From the NCBI RefSeq assembly GCF_029633865.1, contig NC_079220.1, positions 16,722,216 through 16,786,215 on the forward strand: a stretch of 64,000 nt of DNA, given 5' to 3'. The notes beneath the pieces were generated by a model. That model had not been told where the DNA came from. It ran no database searches and saw nothing but the letters and a program-made list of their open reading frames with translations. Positions 1-63,525 of this stretch are shown piece after piece; the stretch's first letter is position 1; each line of letters starts with the position of its first letter. The stretch comes from Lampris incognitus. Its lineage: Eukaryota. The position numbers were made by a program, and so were the translations under genes.

Positions 1-1558
1 TGTGCATGGGGAATGAGCTGTTCTTCTGCCTCCTCTACATTCTCTATTACATTGAGGAACCTGCTGGTAAGTCTGTGTACAATGGTTTCTTCATAGACCT
101 TCCCTCCCTTTGCCTTTGTCTTTTGTTTTTAAATCTTGGACGTCAGCTGGTACACATAGACTGCAAAATACAAAAATTTGCTTTGCTCACGAAGAGCCAT
201 TTGAAATCCAGATTTAAGTAACAGTGTAAAAAGGAAAAAAAATCACCATCTTTGGACTCACAAGGTCCTCTTGAACATGAGAGATATGCTAATGGTAGAC
301 ACAAGTTGAGCCACAGACTAAATCTTAGTCATTGGGAGTCTTTGATTACTGAAAGCATTGCATGTGATGAGATACCACAAGACCTCCATCACTGAGCCTG
401 TCTCTCCACCCCCCACTTCCCCCACCACCCCTAGCATGGCTGTACTGGCTACAGGGAGTATGTGCTGTGATTTGCCTGCTCAAGGCTGGGATAAGCCTCC
501 TTCACCTCATCACCGCCTCCCAGAATATGGTGGCTTGCGATGCAGCTGATCGGGAAATTGAGAGGACCAAGGCCCAGTGAGAGCCACAACTGTCAGCCCT
601 CATCTTCTTGTGATTCCTTTTTGTTTGCTTGATTTATTGATAAAAGGTAGACTTATTTGGACTCGATTGACACACATTTATGTAACTCAAATAGGCATGA
701 AACGCAGGGCAACCACATCAGCTTGTCATGCTGACATTGCAGACTTCAGTCTTGCTGGAACTGGAGCATATTACGCTGGTGAGCTTTTAAGGTCAGATAT
801 CATTCCAAGCGATCAACAAGACAGTGTTGTTGCACATCGTCTTCTCTTTACCACGGACTGTGTATGTGGATTGTGTTAGTAAATGAGCATAGAAGTAACT
901 GTTAAATGGAACATGAAACTTCCCTGGACTTCTTTAGATGATTTTGAATCAAAGGAGGCAGGGACGGGTCTGCCGGAATAAACCACTTTCAGTAGTAAAG
1001 CGCAGTGATCATGTCATACTCATGAATACCATTCCTACCAAGTCAGCCCATCAGATGCAATTGGCCGGTGGCTGCCGGTAATGGCACCAGAGGCATTTCT
1101 ATTTTGAAAAGGATCAGAAGGGAGAGAGCGGCATGTGTACATTCCTCTTGAGACACCGCATATGTTTGCCGATGCCTGTCTGAACCTTTTTTAGGTCTTT
1201 GTTGTGATGTTACGTTCAAGTAGCAGGAGCTGGGGGTAACTTCCTGGATGCTGGGTAAGAAAGGATGGAGGATACCTGTTGGTAGTAGCAGCAGAAGAGT
1301 CGAGTGGATATCATGGGCAAAACTCATCTGGTTCTTTGTTAGAAAGCAAAAATTTTTAAATGGGACACAAGCTGATTTTAATTTGTGCTACAGCTTATAA
1401 CTTCTTCACATGTGGCTCACTTAGCCGAGGCAGAAATATTGCCTAAGCCTGCTATCAAGTTCAACTTTATTCTTATGTGTAGAATACAATGAAATTGTGC
1501 TCTGGCTCTCTCTGCCTTCACACAAAGGACAAAAGGACAAAGGACACACCCATAGAAA

Positions 1559-1633: not shown

Positions 1634-4379
1634 CATGATAACACACTAATGTAAGATGCATATGGGTGCGTCAGCTGTTCAGCAACCTGACTGCTTGTGG
1701 AAAGAAACTTACTGAGATTGGTGATGTGTGATTTGATGCTCTGGTAACGTTTTTTAGATGGAAAGAGCGAGAGCAGAACATGAGTGGGGTGGCTGGTGTC
1801 CTTCATAATGTTTTGGGCTTTCCTTTTGCAGCAGGTGGTGTAAATATGAAGTGTTAGTTCAGTACCAATGATTTTTGCTGCTGTCTTTACAGTCCTTTGA
1901 AGCAGTCTGCAGTCCTAAGCAGTCAGGTTGCCAAGCCACAGCTGTCGATGGTACTGTCCTGCTTCACACAGGAAGTCTGTGGTGTTGTCTTTTGAAGGAG
2001 GGAAGTAATCGTAAGCTTTATTGAAATCAACTTTATTTGATCTGAGTTTCACATTTCAGCCAGAGCTACATTTTAACTTAATCCAAGGCCAATGTGTATG
2101 TCACTGCTAGTTAACCACTGATTCATTGATATCACTTCAAGTTACAATCTTGAAGATTTACGTGCAACTAAATGTAAAAAAATTTTTATTTGTTCCATTA
2201 CTAGCACATCACTAATTACAGCAGACAATCAAAAACAAAATCCAAATTATGAAAGTTTTTTTTCAGTTGCTCATTCTTCTATTGGGTGGGACTTTTCCAT
2301 GAAAATTTAAAAGGCACATTGTTTTCAGTTTTCAGTCTTGAGCGTGGAAGCCAAATGTAGAAGTAGAAGGCCGGTAGAAGGGTGTTTGAAGGGGTAGTGA
2401 ATTTAGAAGGCAGCTTGGAGAAGATCTTTATCTTCAGATACTACTAGATTGATAGCTAAAATCCTTGTTCAACCATGTTTGGTTTGTTTGGCGGTGCTGA
2501 CGTAGCAGCGCTGGCAACTCTTGTTTCATTTCGAATGGATCTCCAGGACTTTGGTGGCTTGAACACCATTGCAATTATCACATGTCACTGTAGATGTCTG
2601 TAAATGAAACAAAACCTATAGTTTTAAGGATTCTAACTTTAACGTTGTTTTTATGTTGGCTTGGCTGTGTTATATCGAACAAACCATCTCACCCATTGTC
2701 ATAATCTTTGGGATGAGATGAGCTAACACCATTTTGTTGTTGCATACAGCAGGAAATTAGATTTCCAACATGGATTAGCCGATTCCAGCCATATGGCACT
2801 CGTTGGCCACATGAATCAGAATACCTAAATTTCATTAAATGCTCATGAATATAATCATTCATTTAAAAATGCCTTAAGTCCAACACAATGAATACCACTT
2901 GATGGATGACAAAAATTTTGTAATTGTGTGGATTAGTAGAGGTAGGAGACGGGACTCTACCAGACACCAGGAACTGCATTTGTAACTTTTCTAAGCAGCA
3001 CAGTGCTGACCTACTAGTATCCCTGGTAAAGCACATTACCACTGACTGAAATGTTAAATCCATCCTGAAAAAGATGAGTGCACATAAACAGCATGTGGCA
3101 AACATTCCCATCTTCCTAATAAACCTTTTGGCAGTAAATGTGTCCCTCTGATGTTCAATCCTCAGTTTCCATCTTTCAACAAAAAGGCACATTATTTTGC
3201 TTGTTGGTGAACAGTTTTCTGGTTGCTTCCTTTCCCTCCTTTTTAAATGGTTAATAAACACTGAATACATTGGGTTTTAACATTTTATGCTCACCTGATG
3301 TCTGTTACAGTAGATTTAAGTGTGTCCTATTAAAATGCCTCTAGCTGCAACATCCGAGCCGCCATCTTCTGCTGTACCATTCTTACTTTTCAAAGTATAT
3401 ATATATGAAGAATTAAGAGTATATTTGTATTGAAATAGGGGATCATGTCAAATAGTTGCGCTTAAGTGGTGTTGACTATGAGCACTTGCATTGGATTTTT
3501 TTTTTGTACTGGTGAGAGTGGTAGAATCTTGTTTTTGTATTTATATTCCACCCTACTTTTGAATTTATTTAAAGTTATATTGGGCACAATTCATACCGCG
3601 TGTGAAAGGTCACCAAATTATTATTGTTTATAGTGTTGTGTTATAAATTTAAGGATTTTCTGTCTAACCATGAATATGTACTGTGTGCATCATGCTGCTG
3701 AGTGACTCATAAAGCCATAGTTCATTGCAGAATGTGTGTTTAAATGTGTAATTGTCATCCCATGATAGTCACTTGTTTTGACCAAGTCTGTCCAGAATGT
3801 ACTGTAAAATAAAGAGTTTTAAAACATATTGCAAAGAATGCAATGTCATATTTTTAAGATCACTCATCAAAAGCTGTGGCTGTCGTGCCCATTGCAGTGC
3901 CTCCTGGCTTGCATTTACTGTAAATGGGTGATGATGCCCAATCAAACGCATTGAAATCCAAAGGCTAACTTTGTTTTTTGTTTTTTACCGCACTTCTTCG
4001 AGTTTATTTCCGCCCACCTGTAGGTAGATTCGTCAAAGCCGACTTCGATATGATCGTTTTATTTCCACAAAGAAGACGAAAGGCTCAGAAAACACGCCGC
4101 TGTCGTCACCGTGGCCAGCTGTTGCACTTGCGCGCATCTTTACCTTTAAGATGCATACATGGGATATTGCATTGTTTTAAAACAGCACCACCATCTTAGA
4201 GATGGGTGCGTGGGAACCTCCGCGATCCGGATAGCGGCTAGTTTTTATGTCATCGTCGGAGTTGAGGAACAACGCCGGAGACGATTTTTTTTTTTTGGGG
4301 AAAGGGGGGGCCCGACGGCTCCCTGTGCATGGATCGTGTCGGGGACTGAATTATCTGTCGGCCTACTGTAAGGAGGTGG

Positions 4380-9233: not shown

Positions 9234-9539
9234 ACTTGTTGCCCATCCCTAAAGGATATTCAGATATCACGACAAAATTGTTGACAAAAATTGAGTTCAT
9301 ACCTACATTCCCAGAGTCAGAACCTTCCCATAGGTTCATGGGCATCATCAACTTTTTACTGAACAAAGCTGATAACTGGAAATATGTCTTGATTGTACTC
9401 TGATTTGATTTCTTATGATACAGACATCTTTCCCCTCCCTATCCATCCCATCCCTTTCTCTTGTTTGTTCTTCTTTTGAAGCAAATACCCAAATAAAGAT
9501 TTAGATTTTTATCATTTTACCATCACTTGCGTTACCACA

Positions 9540-10691
9540 CTGCAAGCCTCGCGGCACCTATCTCTGCCACTCCAGATTCGGGGATCTGAACCCAACTTCC
9601 TTTTGATCGACCGGGGGGATGGAGACCATCGCTCCTCCCTTTCGAACGGCATTCGCCCATCCCTTAAGACCAACTGACCCATGATCAACTGCTGTTCACA
9701 TGGAACCCTTCTCAACTTCGGTCTTCAAAGTTCTTGTTTGAATATTTGCTACGACCACCAAGATCTGCACCCGTGGTGGCTCCACCCAGGCTTGCACCCT
9801 AGTCTTCCATGTGCACCATGGCGGCCCTTCTACTCATCGCGACCTAGCCCTCAAGGCTCCTGCTGCCGGCGACGGCCGGGTATGGGCCCAATGCTCCAGC
9901 CCCATCCATTTTCAGGGCTAGTGCATTTGGGAGACGAAAGTTTCAGCCTGCCTAAGCAATGCGAAGGTGCCACCATCCAACATCAGCAACATCAGCAACA
10001 ATGAGAGGAAAGCTCTCACGAATCTCAGTAAGGACAATATCATCATCGTCTGATGTGGTCTCCAGGCGTGGATGAAGACTCTCTCCTGCTCTCAAACTTC
10101 TTTGCTCCAGTTGATCAGCTAACAGAGCTAATGGCTACTCATACACAGTCTGCTCCGGAGCTGCCTGCCCCAGTCCACTCCAACAAGAGGAGGAAGTGTC
10201 GAAAATTCCCAATGACCCTGGCTTCTTGTGGGAAACACCACAGATGTCTCTCTCCTCCTGCTGTCTACAATCTCGGGTGCCCTCTCAACGGAGTACTGGA
10301 CACAGCTGTGGCCAGTATTGACGTCATCTGCAGCAGCGTCTTGCCAGGTGAAAATGTTTCGATTAGCTCTGCTGCTCCTGATGCTGCCCCAACTAATATG
10401 GCTGACAACATTCAACTGTCTCTTTCTCCCTAGCTTTCTGTCTACAATGGGGGTTGTAAGGACAGATTACCTTGTCTCTCCGATATTAAGTACTGGATGT
10501 CACAAAACTTCCTCTGGTTCAATGAGTCCAAATCTGAGGTCCTTTTATTTGGCCCCCCTAACCTAACTGGCGAGCTGGAAAAGAGTCTAGGGAACCTGTC
10601 CTCCCAATGTTATGCACCACAGATACTTCCAGGTCTCCGTGGTGACGGTGGTCGCCACCTGGATGCTGCTTGACATTTCCCTCATCACATT
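9540..10691 (+). mobile_element. L2-clade-like LINE ORF2 fragment (degenerate RT C-terminal region)
   Basis: Frame-shifted translation shows ...MADNIQLSLSP (a degenerate YADD motif) ...LSDIKYWMSQNFLWFNESKSEVLLFG...LGNLSS, typical of fish L2 RT downstream regions. It continues at 14895 after the intervening insertions. Confidence 0.5.
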
Positions 10692-10711
10692 TTCTTTTTA
10701 TATATTTTATA

Positions 10712-13700
10712 CTACTACTTTCGGCTGCTCCCGTTAGGGGTCGCCACAGCGGATCATCCGTTTCCATTTCTTCCTGTCTTCTGCGTCTTCCTCTGTCACA
10801 CCAGCCACCTGCATGTCTTCCCTCACCACATCCATAAACCTCCTCTTTGGCCTTCCTCTTCTCCTCTTCCCTGGCAGCTCCATATTCAGCATCCTTCTCC
10901 CAATATAACCAGGATCTCTCCTCCGCACATGTCCAAGCCATCTCAATCTTGCTTCTCTTGCTTTGTCTCCAAACCGTCCAACCTGAGCGGTCCCTCTAAT
11001 ATAATCGTTACTAATCCTGTCCTTCTTCGTTACTCCCAGTGAAAATCTTAGCATCTTCAACTCTGCCACCTCCAGCTCCACCTCCTGTCTTTTCGTCAGT
11101 GCCACTGTCTCCAAACCATATAACATAGCTGGTCTCACAACCATCTTGTAAACTTTCCCTTTAAATCTTGCTGGTACCCTTCTGTCGCAAATCACTCCTG
11201 ACACACTTCTCCACCCACTCCACCCTGCCTGCACTCTCTTCTTCACCTCTCTACTGCACTCCCCGTTACTTTGGACAGTTGACCCCAAGTATTTAAACTC
11301 AAATGCCTTTGTCACCTCCACTCCTTGCATCCTGACCATGCCACTGTCCTCCCTCTCATTCACGCATAGGTATTCCGTCTTGCTCCTACTGACTTTCATT
11401 CCTCTTCTCTCCAGTGCATACCTCCACCTCTCCAGGCTCTCCTCAACCTGCCCCCTACTCTCGCTACAGATAACAATGTCATCCGCGAACATCATCGTCC
11501 ATGGAGACTCCTGCCTGATCTTGTCCGTCAACCTGTCCATCACCATTGCAAACAAGAAAGGGCTCAGAGCCGATCCTTGATGTAATCCCACCTCCACCTT
11601 GAACCCATCTGTCATTCCAACCGCACACCTCACCATTGTCACACTTCCCTCATACATATCCTGTACCCCTCCTACATACTTCTCTGCAACTCCTGACTTC
11701 CTCATACAATACCACACCTCCTCTCTCGGCACCCTGTCATATGCTTTCTCTAAATCTACAAAGACACAATGCAACTCTTTCTGGCCTTCTCTATACTTCT
11801 CATTCAACATTCTCAAAGCAAACATCGCATCTGTGGTGCTCTTTCGTGGCATGAAACCATACTGCTGCTCGCTGATCATCACCTCTCCTCTTAACCTAGC
11901 TTCTATTACTCTTTCCCAAATCTTCATGCTGTGGCTGATCAACTTTATACCTCTGTAGTTGTTACAGTTCTGCACATCGCCCTTGTTCTTGAAAATCAGT
12001 ACCAGTATGCTTCTTCTCCACTCCTCAGGCATCCTCTCACTTTCCAGGATTGTGTTAAACAATCTAGTTAAAAACTCCACCGCCATCTCTCCTAAACATC
12101 TCCATGCCTCCACAAGTATGTCATCAGGACCAACTGCCTTTCCACTCTTCATCCTCTTCATAGCTGCCCTCACTTCCTCCTTGCTAATCCACTGAACTTC
12201 CTGATTCACTATCCCTACATCATCCAACCTTCTCTCTCTCTCATTTTCTTCATTCATCAGCCCCTCAAAGTATTCCTTCCACCTTCTTAGCACACTCTCC
12301 TCGCTTGTCAGCACATTTCCATCTCTATCCTTGATCGCCCTAACTTGCCGCACATCCTTCCCAGCTCGGTCCCTCTGTCTAGCCAATTGGTACAAGTCCT
12401 TTTCTCCTTCCTTAGTGTCTAACCTGTCATACAACTCACCATACGCCTTTTCCTTTGCCTTTGCCACCTCTCTCTTCGCTTTACGCTGCATCTCCTTGTA
12501 CTCCTGTCTACTTTCTTCATCTCTCTTACTATCCCACTTCTTCTTTGCCAGCCTTTTCCTCTGTATAATTTGCTGTACTTCCTCATTCCACCACCAAGTC
12601 TCCTTGTCTTCCTTCCTCTGTCCTGATGACACACCAAGTGCCTTCCTAGCTGTCACCCTCACTATTTCTGCAGTGGCTGTCCAGCCATCTGGCAACTCTT
12701 CACTACCACCCAGTGCCTGTCTTAACTCCTGCCTGAACTCCACACAACAGTCTTCCTTCTTCAACTTCCACCATTTGATCTTTGGCTGTGTCTTCCCTCG
12801 CTTCCTCTTCTTGGTCTCCAAAGTCATCCTACAGACCACCATCCGATGCTGCCTAGCTACGTTCTCCCCTGTCACCACCTTGCAGTCTCCAATCCCTTTT
12901 AGATCGTGCCTTCTACATAAGATATAGTCCACCTGTGTGCACTTTCCTCCACTCTTGTACGTCACCCTGTGTTCCTCCCTCTTCTTGAAATAAGTATTCA
13001 CCACAGCCATTTCCATTCTTTTCGCAAAATCGACCACCATCTGTCCTTCCACATTTCTCTTCTTGACTCCATACCTTCCCATCACCTCCTCATCACCTCT
13101 GTTCCCTTCACCAACATGTCCATTGAAGTCCGCTCCAATCACCACTCTCTCCTCCTTGGGTACCCTCTCCACCACGTCATCCAACTCACTCCAGAATTCT
13201 TCTTTTTCATCCATCTCACACCCAACTTGCGGGGCATATGCGCTGATAACATTTAGCAATACACCTCTGATTTCCAGCTTCATACTCATCACTCTGTCTG
13301 ACACTCTCTTCACCTCCAGCACGCTCTTGACATACTCTTCCTTCAGAATTACCCCTACCCCATTTCTCCTCCCATTCACACCATGGTAGAAGAGTTTGAA
13401 CCCACTTCCGATACTCCTGGCCTTACTCCCCTTCCACCTGGTCTCTTGCACACACAGTATGCCTACCTTTCTTCTTTCCATCATATCAGCCAGCTCTCTC
13501 CCTTTACCAGTCATAGTGCCAACATTCAAAGTTCCAACTCTCACCTCCACACGCCTACCCTTCCTCCTCTCTAGCTGCCTCTGGACATGCTTTCCCCCTC
13601 TCCCTCTCCTTCGCCCAACAGCAGCATAGTTTCCACCGACACCCTGCTGGTTAACAGTACCGGTGGCGGTCGTTGGTAACCCGGGCCTCGACCGATCCGG

Positions 13701-13843
13701 TATGTAAATCTTATTTATGATCCGCATATTTGATTTGGCAAAGATTTTACGCCGGATGCCCTTCCTGACGCAACCCTCCCCATTTGTCCGGGCTTGGGAC
13801 CGGCAATAAGGATGCACTGGCTTGTGCATCCTCAGTGGCTGGG
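10712..13843 (-). mobile_element. full-length non-LTR retrotransposon (Rex-Babar/RTE-like by its 3' end ...ggtcgccacagcggatcatc), flanked by a 20-bp TSD
   Basis: Perfect direct repeat ttctttttatatattttata at 10692..10711 and 13844..13863. The element carries one long ORF; the family name is from memory. Confidence 0.7.
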
Positions 13844-13970
13844 TTCTTTTTATATATTTTATAAATCCATATAATTTTTTGTTATCGTGTTTTTTTTTTT
13901 TACATGGTGATGGTGGTCGCGTGGCTTGGGTCCTGGGCTGTTCCGGTGGCGTCTGGACACTGCTTGGCAT
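10734..13970 (-). CDS. LINE ORF: APE-type endonuclease + reverse transcriptase, 1078 aa with no internal stops
   Basis: EN motifs VGTLNVGTMTG...CVQETRW. RT motifs FADDIVICSES and ...KTEYLCVNE. C-terminal RRFMDVVREDMQVAGVTEEDAEDRKKWKRMIRCGDP. The first ~80 codons of the tracked ORF read through the TSD and flank; the real start is probably the Met of MRIINK near 13729. Confidence 0.75.
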   Translation of the reverse strand: MPSSVQTPPEQPRTQATRPPSPCKKKKHDNKKLYGFIKYIKRTQPLRMHKPVHPYCRSQARTNGEGCVRKGIRRKIFAKSNMRIINKIYIPDRSRPGLPTTATGTVNQQGVGGNYAAVGRRRGRGGKHVQRQLERRKGRRVEVRVGTLNVGTMTGKGRELADMMERRKVGILCVQETRWKGSKARSIGSGFKLFYHGVNGRRNGVGVILKEEYVKSVLEVKRVSDRVMSMKLEIRGVLLNVISAYAPQVGCEMDEKEEFWSELDDVVERVPKEERVVIGADFNGHVGEGNRGDEEVMGRYGVKKRNVEGQMVVDFAKRMEMAVVNTYFKKREEHRVTYKSGGKCTQVDYILCRRHDLKGIGDCKVVTGENVARQHRMVVCRMTLETKKRKRGKTQPKIKWWKLKKEDCCVEFRQELRQALGGSEELPDGWTATAEIVRVTARKALGVSSGQRKEDKETWWWNEEVQQIIQRKRLAKKKWDSKRDEESRQEYKEMQRKAKREVAKAKEKAYGELYDRLDTKEGEKDLYQLARQRDRAGKDVRQVRAIKDRDGNVLTSEESVLRRWKEYFEGLMNEENERERRLDDVGIVNQEVQWISKEEVRAAMKRMKSGKAVGPDDILVEAWRCLGEMAVEFLTRLFNTILESERMPEEWRRSILVLIFKNKGDVQNCNNYRGIKLISHSMKIWERVIEARLRGEVMISEQQYGFMPRKSTTDAMFALRMLNEKYREGQKELHCVFVDLEKAYDRVPREEVWYCMRKSGVAEKYVGGVQDMYEGSVTMVRCAVGMTDGFKVEVGLHQGSALSPFLFAMVMDRLTDKIRQESPWTMMFADDIVICSESRGQVEESLERWRYALERRGMKVSRSKTEYLCVNEREDSGMVRMQGVEVTKAFEFKYLGSTVQSNGECSREVKKRVQAGWSGWRSVSGVICDRRVPARFKGKVYKMVVRPAMLYGLETVALTKRQEVELEVAELKMLRFSLGVTKKDRISNDYIRGTAQVGRFGDKAREARLRWLGHVRRRDPGYIGRRMLNMELPGKRRRGRPKRRFMDVVREDMQVAGVTEEDAEDRKKWKRMIRCGDP

Positions 13971-14435
13971 CTACACATCATATTCTTCATAAATTTTATA
14001 ATTCCATTATAATTCTGTTATTCACTTGCAATGTTGTATTCTGGTATTCTGTAAATTGTGTAAACACCACATCCATTGCACGTTGTCCGTCTTGGGAGAG
14101 AGATCCCTCCTCTGCTGCTCGCCCTGAGGTTTCTTCCTATTTTTTCTCCCTGTTAAAGGATTTTTTTAGGGAGTGGTTCCTTATCCGATGCAGGGGTCTA
14201 AGGACAGGATGTTGTGTTGCTGTAAAGCCCCTTGAGGCAAATTTGTAATTTGTGATATTAATAATAGTACATTTTATTTTACAAGACATTTTGTTGTTAC
14301 TGTTTGAGATGAATTGTTATTTATTGGCAATTTATGCATTCAGACACAACTGTCCTACTATAGTTTACAGAATCAACCAATTGAGTTACTACAAAAGAAA
14401 TTCTCTTTGTATTTTTAGCTGCAGTATGAACGGGA
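13864..14435. mobile_element. unclassified repeat fragment with a LINE/SINE-type 3' tail (...gtaaagccccttgaggcaaatttgtaatttgtgatattaataa)
   Basis: The tail motif resembles common teleost retroposon 3' ends. 13905..14005 is a diverged copy of 10625..10690. Confidence 0.3.
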
Positions 14436-14439
14436 GCAG

Positions 14440-14693
14440 CGGCATGGTGGCGCAGTGGTTGGTGCAGTCACCTCACAGCAAGAAGGTCCTGGGTTCGAGC
14501 CCCGGGGTTGTCCAACCTTGGGGGTCATCCCGGGTCGTCCTCTGTGTGGAATTTGCATGTTCTCCCTGTGTCTGTGTGGCTTTCCTCCGGGGGCTCCAGT
14601 TTCCTCCCACGGTCCCAAGACATGTAGGTCAGGTGACTTGGCAGTACTAAATTGTCCCTAGGAATGAATGGCTGTGTGTATGTGTGTGTATGT

Positions 14694-14751
<58 letters not shown>

Positions 14752-14882
14752 TGTGATGGCCTGGCGGCCTGTCCAGGGTGTCTCCCCGCCTGCGGCCCAA
14801 TGACTGCTGGAATAGGCTCCAGCATCCCCATGACCCTGAGAGCAGGATAAGTGGTTCAGATAATGGATGGATGGATGGATGG
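14440..14882 (+). mobile_element. tRNA-derived SINE, family A (head ggtggcgcagtggtt...ggttcgagcccc; internal (GT)n; tail ...cctgtgatgg.ctggcg.cctgtccagggtgt...ggataagtgg...(gatg)n)
   Basis: A/B-box-like head and a conserved 3' domain. Seven copies or partial copies of this family occur in the window. Confidence 0.8.
14674..14749. repeat. (GT)n inside SINE-A
   Basis: Direct reading. Confidence 0.95.
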
Positions 14883-14894
14883 ACTTGACTTGAC

Positions 14895-15279
14895 TGTGCT
14901 CGCAATTTGGGTCTTTTTTGACTCCAAGCTCTGTTTTGACACACAAATCACTAGGGTAGTGCAGTATTGCTTTCTCCAAATTAGCAACATCGCAAAAGTT
15001 AAGAATTTTCTATCTCAAACGGACCTTGAAAAAGTCATCCATGCACTAATCTCATCACGTCTCGATTATTGTAACTCCCTGTATTCAGGGCTCAGCCAAA
15101 AGTCCATCTCCCACCTCCAGCTCATCCAAAACTCAGCTGCCAAACTGTTAATAAATTCCAAGAGACATGAACACATCACTCCCATTCTTGCAATGCTTCA
15201 TTGGCTACCCGTTAGGTATAGGATTGATGTTAAACTTTTACTAATTACTTTTAAAGCCCTACATGGCCTCGCTCCTACA
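14895..15279 (+). mobile_element. L2-clade LINE ORF2 C-terminus (continuation of 9540..10691)
   Basis: Translation ...QTDLEKVIHALISSRLDYCNSLYSGL...HLQLIQNSAAKLL...HITPILAMLHWLPVRYRIDVKLLLITFKALHGLAPTY, the canonical fish L2 ORF2 end. Confidence 0.75.
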
Positions 15280-16503
15280 TACACTCACCGGCCACTTTAT
15301 TAGGCACACCTGTCCAACTGCTCGTTAACGCAAATTTCTAATCAGCCAATCACATGGCAGCAACTCAATGCATTTAGGCATGTAGACATGGTCAAGACGA
15401 TCTGCTGCAGTTCAAACCGAGCATCAGAATGGGGAAGAAAGGTGATTTAAGTGACTTTGAACGTGGCATGGTTGTTGGTGCCAGACGGGCTGGTCTGAGT
15501 ATTTCAGAAACTGATGATCAACTGGGATTTTCACGCACAACCATCTCTAGGGTTTACAGAGAAGGGTCCGAAAAAGAGAAAATATCCAGTGAGCGGCAGT
15601 TCTGTGGGCGAAAATGCCTTGTTGATGCCAGAGGTCAGAGGGGAATGGCCAGACTGGTTCGAGCTGATAGAAAGGCAACAGTAACTCAAATAACCACTCA
15701 TTACAACCGAGGTATGCAGAAGAGCATCTCTGAACACACAACACGTCGAACCTTGAGGCAGCTGGGCTACAGCAGCAGAAGACCACACCGGGTGCCACTC
15801 CTGTCAGCTAAGAACAGGAAACTGAGGCTACAATTCGCACAGGCTCACCAAAATTGGACAATAGAAGATTGGAAAAACGTTGCTTGGTCTGATGAGTCTC
15901 GATTTCTGCTGCGACATTCGGATGGTAGGGTCAGAATTTGGCGTCAACAACATGAAAGCATGGATCCATCCTGCCTTGTATCAACGGTTCAGGCTGGAGG
16001 TGGTGGTGTAATGGTGTGGGGGATATTTTCTTGGCACACTTTGGGCCCCTTAGTACCAATTGAGCATTGTGTCAACGCCACAGCCTACCTGAGTATTGTT
16101 GCTGACCATGTCCATCCCTTTATGACCACAGTGTTCTCATCTTCTGATGGCTACTTCCAGCAGGATAACGCGCCATGTCATAAAGCTCGAATCCTCTCAG
16201 ACTGGTTTCTTGGACATGACAATGAGTTCACTGTACTCAAATGGCCTCCACAGTCACCAGATCTCAATCCAATAGAACACCTTTGGGATATGGTGGACCA
16301 GGAGATTCGCATCATGGATGTGCAGCCGGCAAATCTGCAGCAACTGCATGATGCTATCATGTCAATATGGACCAAACTCTCTGAGGAATGTTTCCAGTAC
16401 CTTGTTGAATCTATGCCATGAAGGATTAAGGCAGTTCTGAAGGCAAAAGGGGGTCCAACCCGGTACTAGCAAGGTGTACCTAATAAAGTGGCCAGTGAGT
16501 GTA
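15280..16503 (+). mobile_element. Tc1-like DNA transposon A, structurally complete (about 1.22 kb, ~30-bp TIRs, TA flanks)
   Basis: TIR tacactcaccggccactttattaggcacacct at 15280..15311; inverted copy aggtgtacctaataaagtggccagtgagtgta at 16473..16503. Inserted inside the L2 tail. Confidence 0.85.
15429..16421 (+). CDS. Tc1 transposase, 330 aa, uninterrupted (DD34E)
   Basis: N-terminal paired-like HTH (GKKGDLSDFERGMVVGARRAG). Catalytic D (WSDESRF), D (FQQDNAPCH) and E ([10 protein letters not shown]). Confidence 0.85.
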   Translation: MGKKGDLSDFERGMVVGARRAGLSISETDDQLGFSRTTISRVYREGSEKEKISSERQFCGRKCLVDARGQRGMARLVRADRKATVTQITTHYNRGMQKSISEHTTRRTLRQLGYSSRRPHRVPLLSAKNRKLRLQFAQAHQNWTIEDWKNVAWSDESRFLLRHSDGRVRIWRQQHESMDPSCLVSTVQAGGGGVMVWGIFSWHTLGPLVPIEHCVNATAYLSIVADHVHPFMTTVFSSSDGYFQQDNAPCHKARILSDWFLGHDNEFTVLKWPPQSPDLNPIEHLWDMVDQEIRIMDVQPANLQQLHDAIMSIWTKLSEECFQYLVESMP

Positions 16504-17105
16504 TATCACTGATCTACTCACACCCCATGGGCCTGGTTGCTGCCTGCACTCCTCTGGCAGGTAATTTTTAACTGTTCCCTCAGCCAACCTCATTACTAAA
16601 GGCGACCGGGCGTTTTCTATAAGAGCCCCACAGCTGTGGACCTCCCTACCTGAGGAAATTAGGCTAGCAAACTCACTACCGTCTTTTAAATCATGTTTTA
16701 AAACTTACTTTTACAGGAAGGCTTTTTTATAGCAAATCCATTGTTGCCCAATTTTTATTTAGTTATTTTTTATATTGTTTATATCTTATTCTTTTATAAT
16801 TTTAAATTTTAAATTCTTTGTATTTTTATATTTTTCTTTCATCGTCTTATTTTAACTCTTTTCATCATAACCCTTGTTTTATCTGCTCTAATTCTCTTCA
16901 TTTTTATTACGCTCGTGTGACTTTATCCTGATTGTGTTTTACCATGTTCTGTGGAGTGGATCTGGCATTATGTTCTATATTTTTCATTGTATTTTGTTGT
17001 TTAATCTTGACTATGTACGGACATTATTTTGTTCGTACATTTGTTGTGTAAGGCACCTTGTAACATTGTTTAGAAAAGTGAGATATAAATAAAGTTCATT
17101 ATTAT
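16504..17105 (+). mobile_element. L2-clade LINE 3' UTR (downstream part of the element split by Tc1-A)
   Basis: ...agagccccacagctgtggacctccctacctgaggaaattaggctagcaaactcactaccgtcttttaaatcatgttttaaaacttac..., ending in (TTA)n. Confidence 0.65.
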
Positions 17106-62889: not shown

Positions 62890-63274
62890 AGATCTATGCA
62901 TAGATCTTAGTGTGCAGAAATCTTTTCTTTCAGTTAATTACTTGCACACCTTCAAATGACTACAATAAAGGTCTATGTATTATTTGCCGGTTATCAGTTT
63001 TTTTTCTTCCTTATGACCTCTACTACTAGTAAACCTCCAGTCTCAAAATTAATATAGATAGCGTTATCACCCCTTTAAATGAAAGATCTCTAGATATGGT
63101 CACACGGGTATTATTCACTCCACCCATCCTAGAACGACCAGGATTTCACTCCTACCTAAAACGACCATGGGCGGTCAAAATGCCCCCCGGTTTTTAAACT
63201 TTATATCCTGAGGTGGCAGATTTGAGGATGCTAAGATTTTCATTGGGAGTGATGAAGAAAGATGGATGAAGAAT

Positions 63275-63525
63275 GGATTAGGAACGAGTAGATCAGAGGG
63301 ACAGCTCAGTTTGGACAGTTTGGAGACGACTCAAGAGAGGCAAGATTGAGATGGCTTGGACATGTGTGGAGGAGAGATGCTGGGTATATTGGGAGAAGGA
63401 TGCTGAATAATGGAGCTGCCAGGGAAGAGGAAAAGAAGAAGGCCAAAGAGGAGGTTTATGGATTTGACGAGGGAGGACATGCAAGTGGCTGATGTGACAG
63501 AGGAAGATGCAGAGGACAGGAAGAG
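63275..63525 (+). mobile_element. 5'-truncated fragment of the Babar/RTE-like LINE (ORF C-terminus, frameshifted)
   Basis: About 85% identical to the reverse complement of 10760..11010 (...ARLRWLGHV.RRD.GYIGRRMLN...PKRRFMD..REDMQVA.VTEEDAEDRK...). Confidence 0.7.

Follow-up and report, generated by a model that had tools for sequence, protein, structure and literature searches.

A full-length RTE retrotransposon headed by a predicted twister ribozyme in the teleost Lampris incognitus

Perere-3/SR3 of Schistosoma mansoni is a long interspersed nuclear element (LINE) of the RTE clade with a single open reading frame (ORF) for an apurinic endonuclease (APE) and a reverse transcriptase (RT), and it carries a twister ribozyme at its extreme 5' end. 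The 5' twister variants of Perere-3 cleave in vitro and in reporters and are transcribed together with it (Liu et al. 2021, NAR, PMC8501958). The target-site duplications (TSDs) of Perere-3 copies adjoin the cleavage site and form the 5' strand of the ribozyme helix P1 (PMC8501958). 'Truncated but catalytically competent' twisters are conserved 5' in the RTE superfamily, for which roles in 5' processing and translation have been proposed (De la Peña et al. 2020, PMC7761336). The present analysis concerns a 64,000-nucleotide stretch of Lampris incognitus DNA (contig NC_079220.1, positions 16,722,216 to 16,786,215), hereafter the window, numbered from its first base. Its minus strand very probably holds, at 10712-13845, a full-length, recently inserted RTE-clade LINE of the teleost OlRTE-a03 family with a twister at its 5' head.

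The window element shares with Perere-3 the RTE clade, the single APE and RT ORF, the ribozyme placed right at the 5' end, ahead of that ORF, a TSD that borders the predicted cleavage site and contributes the 5' strand of P1, and a near-identical ribozyme core (CCG GUCCCAAGC CGG, (G/A)UAAA, GAGGG UUG). It differs in its vertebrate host and in the sequences of P2 and P3; furthermore, the fish element is known from sequence alone. R2, RTE, baggins and L1Tc elements carry hepatitis delta virus (HDV)-like ribozymes at their 5' end (review PMC6765202). These ribozymes are alike in processing the 5' end of LINE RNA out of a co-transcript and possibly in aiding translation. In contrast, their fold is unrelated and has no upstream nucleotide requirement, whereas a twister normally uses an upstream P1 strand, here provided by the flank. 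The closest family is OlRTE-a03 of medaka (Oryzias latipes, AB207138), which is of the same length class and possesses a single ORF from MRI..IPDRSRPGL to MIRCGDP. The window copy belongs to a different species lineage, with 89% DNA identity to the closest copies found (L001/L002), and has ~19 private amino-acid changes.

The copy is an ordinary young LINE, a clean example and not a new type. Its use lies in being fully delimited, as the termini are exact and the duplication, the unbroken ORF and the ribozyme are all present, and in adding a vertebrate case to the twister-headed RTE design, for which experiments are confined to Schistosoma, besides mention for the RTE superfamily. A literature search pairing 'twister ribozyme' with 'teleost' returned no paper; the association of twister and RTE in fish may be undescribed in the searchable literature, the general RTE-twister link being published.

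Termini, reading frame and age of the copy

The element is bracketed by a perfect direct repeat. The 20-mer TTCTTTTTATATATTTTATA occurs exactly twice in the window, at 10692-10711 and 13844-13863 (coordinates of all features in Table 1), and no further match with up to two mismatches is present in the window, nor any in 100 shuffles. A protein search returned 2463 relatives at E ≤1e-10, with teleosts including Hemibagrus, Silurus, Oryzias and Synaphobranchus. Relatives from these four genera have 75-87% protein identity, and the uninterrupted ones are mostly ~990-1000 amino acids (aa) long. The boundaries were located by blastn of the element plus 150-nt flanks against the DNA of several fetched relatives. 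At the 3' boundary, homology to all of the first four loci (L001-L004) ceases precisely where the downstream repeat begins. At the 5' boundary, homology to L001 and L002, two independent insertions with unrelated flanks, begins no more than 2 nt from 13843, where the upstream repeat has its inner edge. The termini common to copies are 5'-AACCCAGCCACUG... and ...GGGAGCAGCCGAAAG(AAG)n-3'. The 5' start reads AACCCAGCC in L001, L002 and L015, and AATCTAGCC at the equivalent position in L004 and L017; three of these five have readable upstream sequence, with unrelated flanks.

The 20-mer is found in none of the other copies examined and homology stops at its inner edges, so the repeat is a TSD and not a part of the element, the objection under which the sequence-only reading would have given up its own TSD call. 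That reading had proposed a full-length retrotransposon lacking long terminal repeats and bracketed by a perfect 20-bp repeat, and both proposals agree with the independent full-length copies, the 5' end coinciding and the 3' end matching to the base. Its length of 20 bp for the duplication needs widening: the AA that closes the repeat also opens the element in other copies, so that the TSD measures 18-20 bp and the element ends at 13843 or 13845. Shorter duplications flank the relatives, with 17 bp in a Hemibagrus copy (L004), 13 bp in a Silurus copy (L015) and ~12-14 bp in L008; those of 13 and 17 bp adjoin AACCC/AATCT. The predicted empty target site would read ...GGATTTATAAAATATATAAAAAGAAAATGTGATG....

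The 3' ends of the fish copies consist of GGGAGCAGCCGAAAG followed by (AAG)2-8. The tail of the window copy (10712-10722, minus strand) reads GTAGTAG, while all fish relatives with read 3' ends (L001-L015) have (AAG)n; a tail of the (TAG)n type is otherwise seen in SINE-like relatives (SINE, short interspersed nuclear element) from metagenomes, described below. The GTAGTAG tail may be a variant of the source lineage or the product of slippage at priming. An older fragment of the same family lies at the far end of the window (Table 1); it is truncated at both ends and uninformative on termini.

The stop-free frame runs from 13970 to 10734 on the minus strand and comprises 1078 aa, ending in ...RRFMDVVREDMQVAGVTEEDAEDRKKWKRMIRCGDP. 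This open frame, taken as the ORF in the sequence-only reading, is real, but its first 81 codons are flank, TSD and leader. Codons 1-42, from the ATG at 13970 onwards, represent flank and duplication and, with the upstream repeat copy inside the frame, lie outside the element; the next 39 codons are the 5' leader with the ribozyme, open in frame by chance. The conserved start MRI(I/V)..IPDRSRPGL is residue 82 of the frame (ATG 13727). Fourteen of the 22 aligned homologues (990-1020 aa) start at this Met or within 6 residues of it, and the DNA around it (CAAATCAAATATGCGGA; ATGCGGA start region) is conserved among copies; the true ORF is therefore 13727-10734, with 997 aa. The annotation is corrected accordingly: the in-frame upstream extension is ribozyme and flank, not protein. 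Another in-frame ATG, at 13829 in stem P3, was rejected as a start, as it is not conserved (L001 reads ATG CAC TAG, and L015 lacks an ATG).

Pfam recovers the endonuclease (PF03372) and RT (PF00078) domains recognised earlier, and the C-terminal RRFMD...TEEDAEDR...IRCGDP motif is present in the ORF translation. Alignment to human L1 ORF2p places the endonuclease active-site residues N, E, D-x-N, D and H, and the RT possesses the motif-A aspartate (VDLEKAYD) and FADD. The catalytic residues, whose loss would have spoken against a coding-competent element, are thus retained. The 'SDH' motif reads 'RQH' in all family members, and the plant/animal subgroup references have 'QH'; this is therefore a subgroup trait rather than a loss.

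The intact ORF is under purifying selection, with dN/dS of 0.11-0.18 against 8 relatives. About 5.4% of point substitutions would yield a stop; under an assumed indel:substitution ratio of 0.05-0.15, the unbroken 2991-nt ORF caps neutral decay after insertion at ~0.5-1% (95% confidence). A recent insertion is plausible from this unbroken frame. The very recent retrotransposition claimed before had also been read from the perfect duplication, which by itself is weak evidence of youth.

Two points speak against a recent and functional copy. Both attributes, 'recent' and 'active', would follow from one observation, the intactness of the ORF, and the protein carries P658L in the RT motif 'VPIFKNKG', otherwise invariant in the family (other RTEs have T, N or S at this position). 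The copy could be intact by chance and functionally dead, its private substitutions having disabled the protein or the ribozyme. This is a serious possibility, though distinctly the less probable one. It would account for 19 private changes at columns conserved to at least 95% (e.g. P619L, P658L, D170G, E235R), for a U-to-C change in the ribozyme, and for the exact-protein look-ups of the 1078-aa and 997-aa products, which found no identical protein on record. However, the same count gives 25 and 46 in relatives with many identical copies, so the window copy is not an outlier, and the seemingly private K982 and L1012 are also present in the older fragment at 63210-63524 and are thus lineage traits. 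The intact catalytic residues and the low dN/dS equally argue for a functional protein.

Predicted twister ribozyme, leader and possibly exchangeable 5' modules

The Rfam family twister-P1 (RF03160) matches 13850-13770 on the minus strand with 47.4 bits (E ~1e-9 to 2e-8, model positions 1-68) in a scan run at an E-value threshold; the gathering score of the family is 67.2. From 5' to 3' the alignment comprises AAAA (P1, flank), G^AA (consensus U^AA), CCCA (P2), GCC, the P3 hairpin ACUGAGGAUGCAC...GUGCAUCCUUAUU, GCCGGUCCCAAGCCCGG (P4 and loop), ACAAA, UGGG (P2'), GAGGG and UUGC (P1'). The conserved core (AA at the cleavage site, GC, the GUCCCAAGC loop, UAAA and GAGGG) is present with the exception of C13786 and the G at -1. 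Presumably this core resembles that of the rice twister Osa-1-4.

Twisters cleave at a U-A step, one nucleotide 3' of P1 (PMC8501958). The predicted scissile bond would lie between G13846 of the flank and A13845, the first base of the element. The predicted cleaved RNA would start with AACCCAGCC, which is the exact 5' terminus common to independent genomic copies, and the predicted bond coincides with the boundary of duplication and element, as it does in L004, L015 and a SINE-like relative (L062). The twister, which had escaped the sequence-only reading, thus appears to define the exact 5' end of the element.

All related copies tested match twister-P1, with 41-58 bits and E-values of 1e-11 to 5e-6. 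In an alignment of 48 distinct ribozymes, 94.8% of the cells are paired in P2, 95.8% in P3 and 92.4% in P4; the GC/GC pseudoknot (columns 13-14 with 63-64) reaches 97.9% and the CCC/GGG pseudoknot (columns 54-56 with 81-83) 97.2%. Changes on both sides occur at 9 pairs; none of 500 shuffles matches the observed values, and slid controls are 29-53% paired. The alternative strands in P2 are CCCA/UGGG, UCUA/UAGA, CCAA/UUGG and CCUA/UAGG, with a fifth variant, UGUA/UACA, in L018 outside the 48-copy alignment, and those in P4 are CCG/CGG, CCA/UGG and CCU/AGG. The ribozyme therefore combines P2, P4 and the optional P3 with both pseudoknots and covariation, and P3 and P4 also appear in the minimum-free-energy (MFE) fold (z = -2.6).

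The flank-derived P1, in contrast, is paired in 46% across copies, roughly as expected by chance, and in the window consists of two A-U pairs. The base at -1 is random (A16, T13, G9, C8), as expected for flanking DNA. A target choice favouring the P1 5' strand was considered and rejected, given pairing at the chance level.

Several features weigh against a functional twister. The score of 47.4 bits stays below the gathering score of 67.2 and a P1 of the element's own is lacking; C13786 replaces a U kept in at least 90% of copies ('AUAAA' loop); P3 contains one C·U mismatch (13835/13806); position -1 is occupied by G in place of the usual U; and a multi-copy sister subfamily (L005-L014) dispenses with the twister, so that the ribozyme is not indispensable for the lineage. 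The low score results mainly from the missing element-encoded P1 5' strand, and in the combination of a flank-derived P1 strand with a low score the window ribozyme matches the 'truncated' RTE-type twisters (PMC7761336). With C13786, the P3 mismatch and the G at -1, the copy's own cleavage competence is uncertain and its ribozyme may be weakened.

From the score, the altered loop U and the sister subfamily, whose different 5' module has no Rfam match, one might conclude that the twister is a relic or look-alike without a role, and that the 5' ends of copies are set by the transcription start site. This is improbable. Across the 48 copies the core nucleotides and both pseudoknots are kept (97-98% paired) and P2, P3 and P4 show compensatory changes; the match is significant in every related copy tested; independent copies begin exactly 3' of the scissile bond, next to a random upstream base; short 5' tandem duplications restart exactly at AACC; and the homologous arrangement of Perere-3 cleaves in vitro and in vivo (PMC8501958).

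The tandem duplications comprise the first 15-40 nt and are found in L016 (24-60), L018 (18-90), L033, L037, L048, L053, L058 and others. Their restart at AACC is consistent with a jump of the RT from the 5' end of the cleaved RNA to a second template. The Silurus copy L015 has a second, inverted twister-P1 match (233-313, minus strand, 43 bits) ~370 bp upstream of its own twister, which probably belongs to another element.

The 5' leader amounts to 118 nt including the ribozyme. The MFE fold predicts a hairpin, UUGCGUC...GGCGUAA, formed by the leader and the 3' strand of the ribozyme (P1 3'), and this predicted hairpin may act in translation or in recognition by the RT. The segment GAGGGUUGCGUCAGGAAGGGCAUCCGGCGUAAAA (13728-13777, minus strand), which follows the ribozyme core directly on its 3' side, exceeds the ORF in conservation.

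The 25-mer GAGGGTTGYGTCAGGAAGGGCATCC, reaching from the ribozyme GAGGG into the start of the leader, matches more than 120 metagenome loci without mismatch; a pattern scan of metagenome contigs with it yielded 120 further loci (L019-L138; JGI contigs Ga0056126_*, Ga0209458_* and others). Most of these begin with AACCAAGCC or AACCTAGCC after unrelated flanks. In a eukaryote from these metagenomes, the same twister and leader head ~300-bp non-coding SINE-like elements with (TAG)n tails and TSDs (e.g. L062, 918-1230). They look like twister-headed non-autonomous partners of an RTE. Among the metagenome loci, L055 alone possesses an RTE ORF, with 36% identity to that of the window.

The sister subfamily L005-L014 (ENA ERZ25073254) encodes an identical 992-aa protein at a minimum of 24 loci, and is therefore probably active. 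Upstream of position 801 its twister is replaced by an unrelated 5' region, the related leader hairpin being kept; an Rfam scan of this alternative module in L005 gave no match. This suggests that 5' modules are exchangeable. A broader reading is that the teleost OlRTE family is a vertebrate LINE lineage active at present, in which the twister generates the 5' end of the RNA, the module of ribozyme and leader being exchangeable and horizontally mobile. It draws on the head shared with SINE-like elements down to an exact 25-mer, on the head swap of the sister subfamily, on the 42-44% protein identity to plant RTEs and on the presumed likeness to Osa-1-4, and is offered as a speculation that we consider unlikely as a whole. 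If true, it would provide a test case for whether a unit of ribozyme and LINE has been transferred between plants and animals and, if also undescribed, natural vertebrate twister ribozymes with a defined function. A family active in the source species could give rise to insertion polymorphisms and mobilise SINEs.

We infer a cycle in which the element would be transcribed from an upstream or host promoter, probably within a longer host or read-through transcript. The twister would then cut just 5' of the conserved AA and release an RNA starting with AACCCAGCC; this step is suggested by the fold and by the coincidence with the termini of genomic copies, the corresponding experiment being that on the homologous Perere-3. 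The ORF would be translated, possibly aided by the cleaved ribozyme and the leader, as the literature suggests. The endonuclease would nick an AT-rich target, reverse transcription would be primed on the repeat tail and proceed to the cleaved 5' end, and a staggered second nick would produce the 18-20-bp TSD. In the new copy, the duplicated target would provide the 5' strand of P1, here with two A-U pairs only. This copy may still be active at present.

Clade placement

As references, 12 RTE and Rex3 proteins were taken from Additional file 2 of Tay et al. 2010 (PMC2887409), a set that leaves out CR1/L2/Jockey, BovB and Rex1/Babar. In blastp, the 997-aa ORF is closest to OlRTE-a03 of medaka (73% over 997 aa in a reference with optical character recognition errors, 1298 bits), followed by the RTEs of rice, soybean and potato (42-44%, 726-791 bits), of Pristionchus and a cichlid (38-41%), by Rex3 of stickleback and Tetraodon (29-31%, 338-395 bits) and by the RTE of C. 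briggsae (26%, 237 bits). The 12 references thus range from 237 to 1298 bits, against 96 bits for human L1 ORF2p and 56-82 bits for R2 proteins. A neighbour-joining tree (947 columns, 100 bootstraps) unites the window element, OlRTE-a03, Hemibagrus and the ERZ copies in 100% of the replicates, and this group in turn clusters with the plant RTEs in 96%. Rex3 is set apart as a clade of its own (100% bootstrap); the window element groups with Rex3 in 0 of 100 replicates.

By both measures, the element is placed in the RTE clade, OlRTE / 'plant-animal RTE' subgroup. Its organisation agrees, with a single ORF in which an N-terminal APE endonuclease precedes the RT, a compact size, and a 22-nt 3' untranslated region (UTR) with short tandem repeats. 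RTE elements, as reportedly characterised by Malik and Eickbush in 1998, are compact (~3.2 kb), have a very short 3' UTR and end in short tandem repeats rather than poly(A). The 'Plant/Animal RTE' subgroup is named in Tay et al. 2010 (PMC2887409), there citing Zupunski et al. 2001; medaka has both Rex3 and a 'plant-like RTE' (PMC2887409). The sequence-only reading had left the choice between Rex-Babar, RTE and L2 to an alignment; of these, RTE alone fits.

A C-terminal motif GRPK/RRxMD...DR..W is widespread among Rex3, Rex1/Babar and L2 types, and the element shares it. Rex3, furthermore, is likewise a teleost LINE of the RTE clade, with similar architecture and size (~3.2 kb), a very short 3' UTR and terminal GAA repeats (Volff et al. 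1999; PMC6274825). That the element is a Rex3, Rex1/Babar or L2-type LINE is nevertheless scarcely credible: protein identity to Rex3 is ~30%, compared to 73% to OlRTE-a03, the Rex3 clade stands apart, and the L2-like sequences of the window are a different, unrelated ORF. Rex3 terminates in GCG(GAA)2(GATG)n, 3 nt after its stop codon (PMC6274825); this tail signature is absent from the window element, in which TAA is followed by CGGGAGCAGCCGAAAGTAGTAG without GATG repeats. The standard Rex3 primers RTX3-F3/RTX3-R3 (PMC3728117) find no site in it at up to three mismatches. Rex3 membership is ruled out on these grounds, and membership in Rex1/Babar (CR1-related) is unlikely given the strong RTE placement. 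The family is accordingly assigned to OlRTE and not to Rex3.

Host context

The layout around the element was obtained by tblastn with homologues of neighbouring ORFs and by blastn against the window, in plus-strand coordinates (Table 1).

Table 1. Features of the RTE element and its surroundings in the window (strand given where assigned)
Feature	Position	Strand	Remarks
L2-like LINE tail, first piece	10458 to ~10620		
Unclassified sequence	10623-10691		unique in the window
RTE element with both duplication copies	10692-13863		
Downstream TSD copy	10692..10711	.	TATAAAATATATAAAAAGAA in element sense; homology of copies L001-L004 stops exactly at 10712
RTE element	10712-13843/13845	-	3132-3134 bp (~3.13 kb)
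3' UTR	10712..10733	-	22 nt; CGGGAGCAGCCGAAAGTAGTAG; trinucleotide-repeat tail of (GTA/TAG) type at the end
Conserved family ORF	10734..13727	-	997 aa and TAA stop; start MRIINKIYIPDRSRPG...
RT domain (RVT_1)	11274..11978	-	PF00078, E=2.9e-34; aa 665-899 of the 1078-aa frame
AP-type endonuclease domain (Exo_endo_phos)	12909..13532	-	PF03372, E=5.5e-7; aa 147-354 of the 1078-aa frame
Conserved leader, ribozyme to start codon	13728..13769	-	nearly invariant in fish copies
Twister ribozyme, type-P1 layout (predicted)	13770..13845	-	Rfam RF03160; first 76 nt; P1 5' strand not element-encoded
Upstream TSD copy	13844..13863	.	final AA (13845-13844) also first two bases of the element
Unclassified sequence	13864-14438		unique in the window
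tRNA-headed SINE	14439-14883	+	(GGAT)n tail, expanded (TG)n inside; at least four further regions of the window match
L2-like tail, second piece	14895-15282		
Tc1-like transposon	~15283-16501		
L2-like tail, third piece	16502-16726		
Older fragment of the same family	63210..63524	+	86% identical to element positions 2772-3075, with a frameshift; found in the window by blastn and tblastn with the element as query

The L2-like tail consists of three pieces, for which the label 'L2' is our assumption from recognition of C-terminal motifs, the homologues having been returned unnamed. The sequence-only reading had the element split an L2 remnant whose halves end at 10691 and resume at 14895. The right-hand position holds; the left piece ends at ~10620, ~70 nt away. 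The stretch 13864-14894 had been left without explanation in that reading. Moreover, the RTE element lies in unclassified DNA next to a SINE and touches L2-like sequence at neither end; it is therefore nested in interrupting material and does not itself split the L2-like tail, and the nesting is corrected in this sense.

The left flank with its 20-mer (10625-10711) has a diverged paralogue at 13895-13995 (73% column identity, one 29-nt indel), with a third, diverged version of the 20-mer ~120 bp into the right flank. The target was thus already locally duplicated, and the 20-bp repeat could in principle be part of this pre-existing repeat and the element an older resident; we attach next to no weight to this, as the two 20-mers are identical and the third clearly diverged, they adjoin to the base the termini defined by copies of other species, relatives are likewise flanked by duplications of 13-17 bp, and the ORF is unbroken. 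With two identical 20-mers adjoining the termini, the imperfect local duplication does not weaken the TSD call.

The tRNA-headed SINE has further matches in the window at 52806-53261, 62565-62893, 23080-22731 (minus strand), 46330-46135 (minus strand) and 56048-56173. Its (GGAT)n tail repeats the unit also found in the (GATG)n tail of Rex3, which suggests that Rex3 mobilises this SINE. The Tc1-like transposon sits in the L2-like tail and possesses an uninterrupted 330-aa transposase ORF (15429-16421, plus strand) with HTH_Tnp_Tc3_2 and DDE_3 domains. To the left of the L2-like remnant, at a distance of a few hundred bases, a fragment of the eukaryotic 28S (large subunit, LSU) ribosomal RNA (rRNA) lies at 9361-10029 on the minus strand, with 171 bits in a local scan (model 665-1683) and 90.7 bits at the gathering threshold (1456-1888); it may represent an rRNA-derived retrocopy or a chimeric LINE product.

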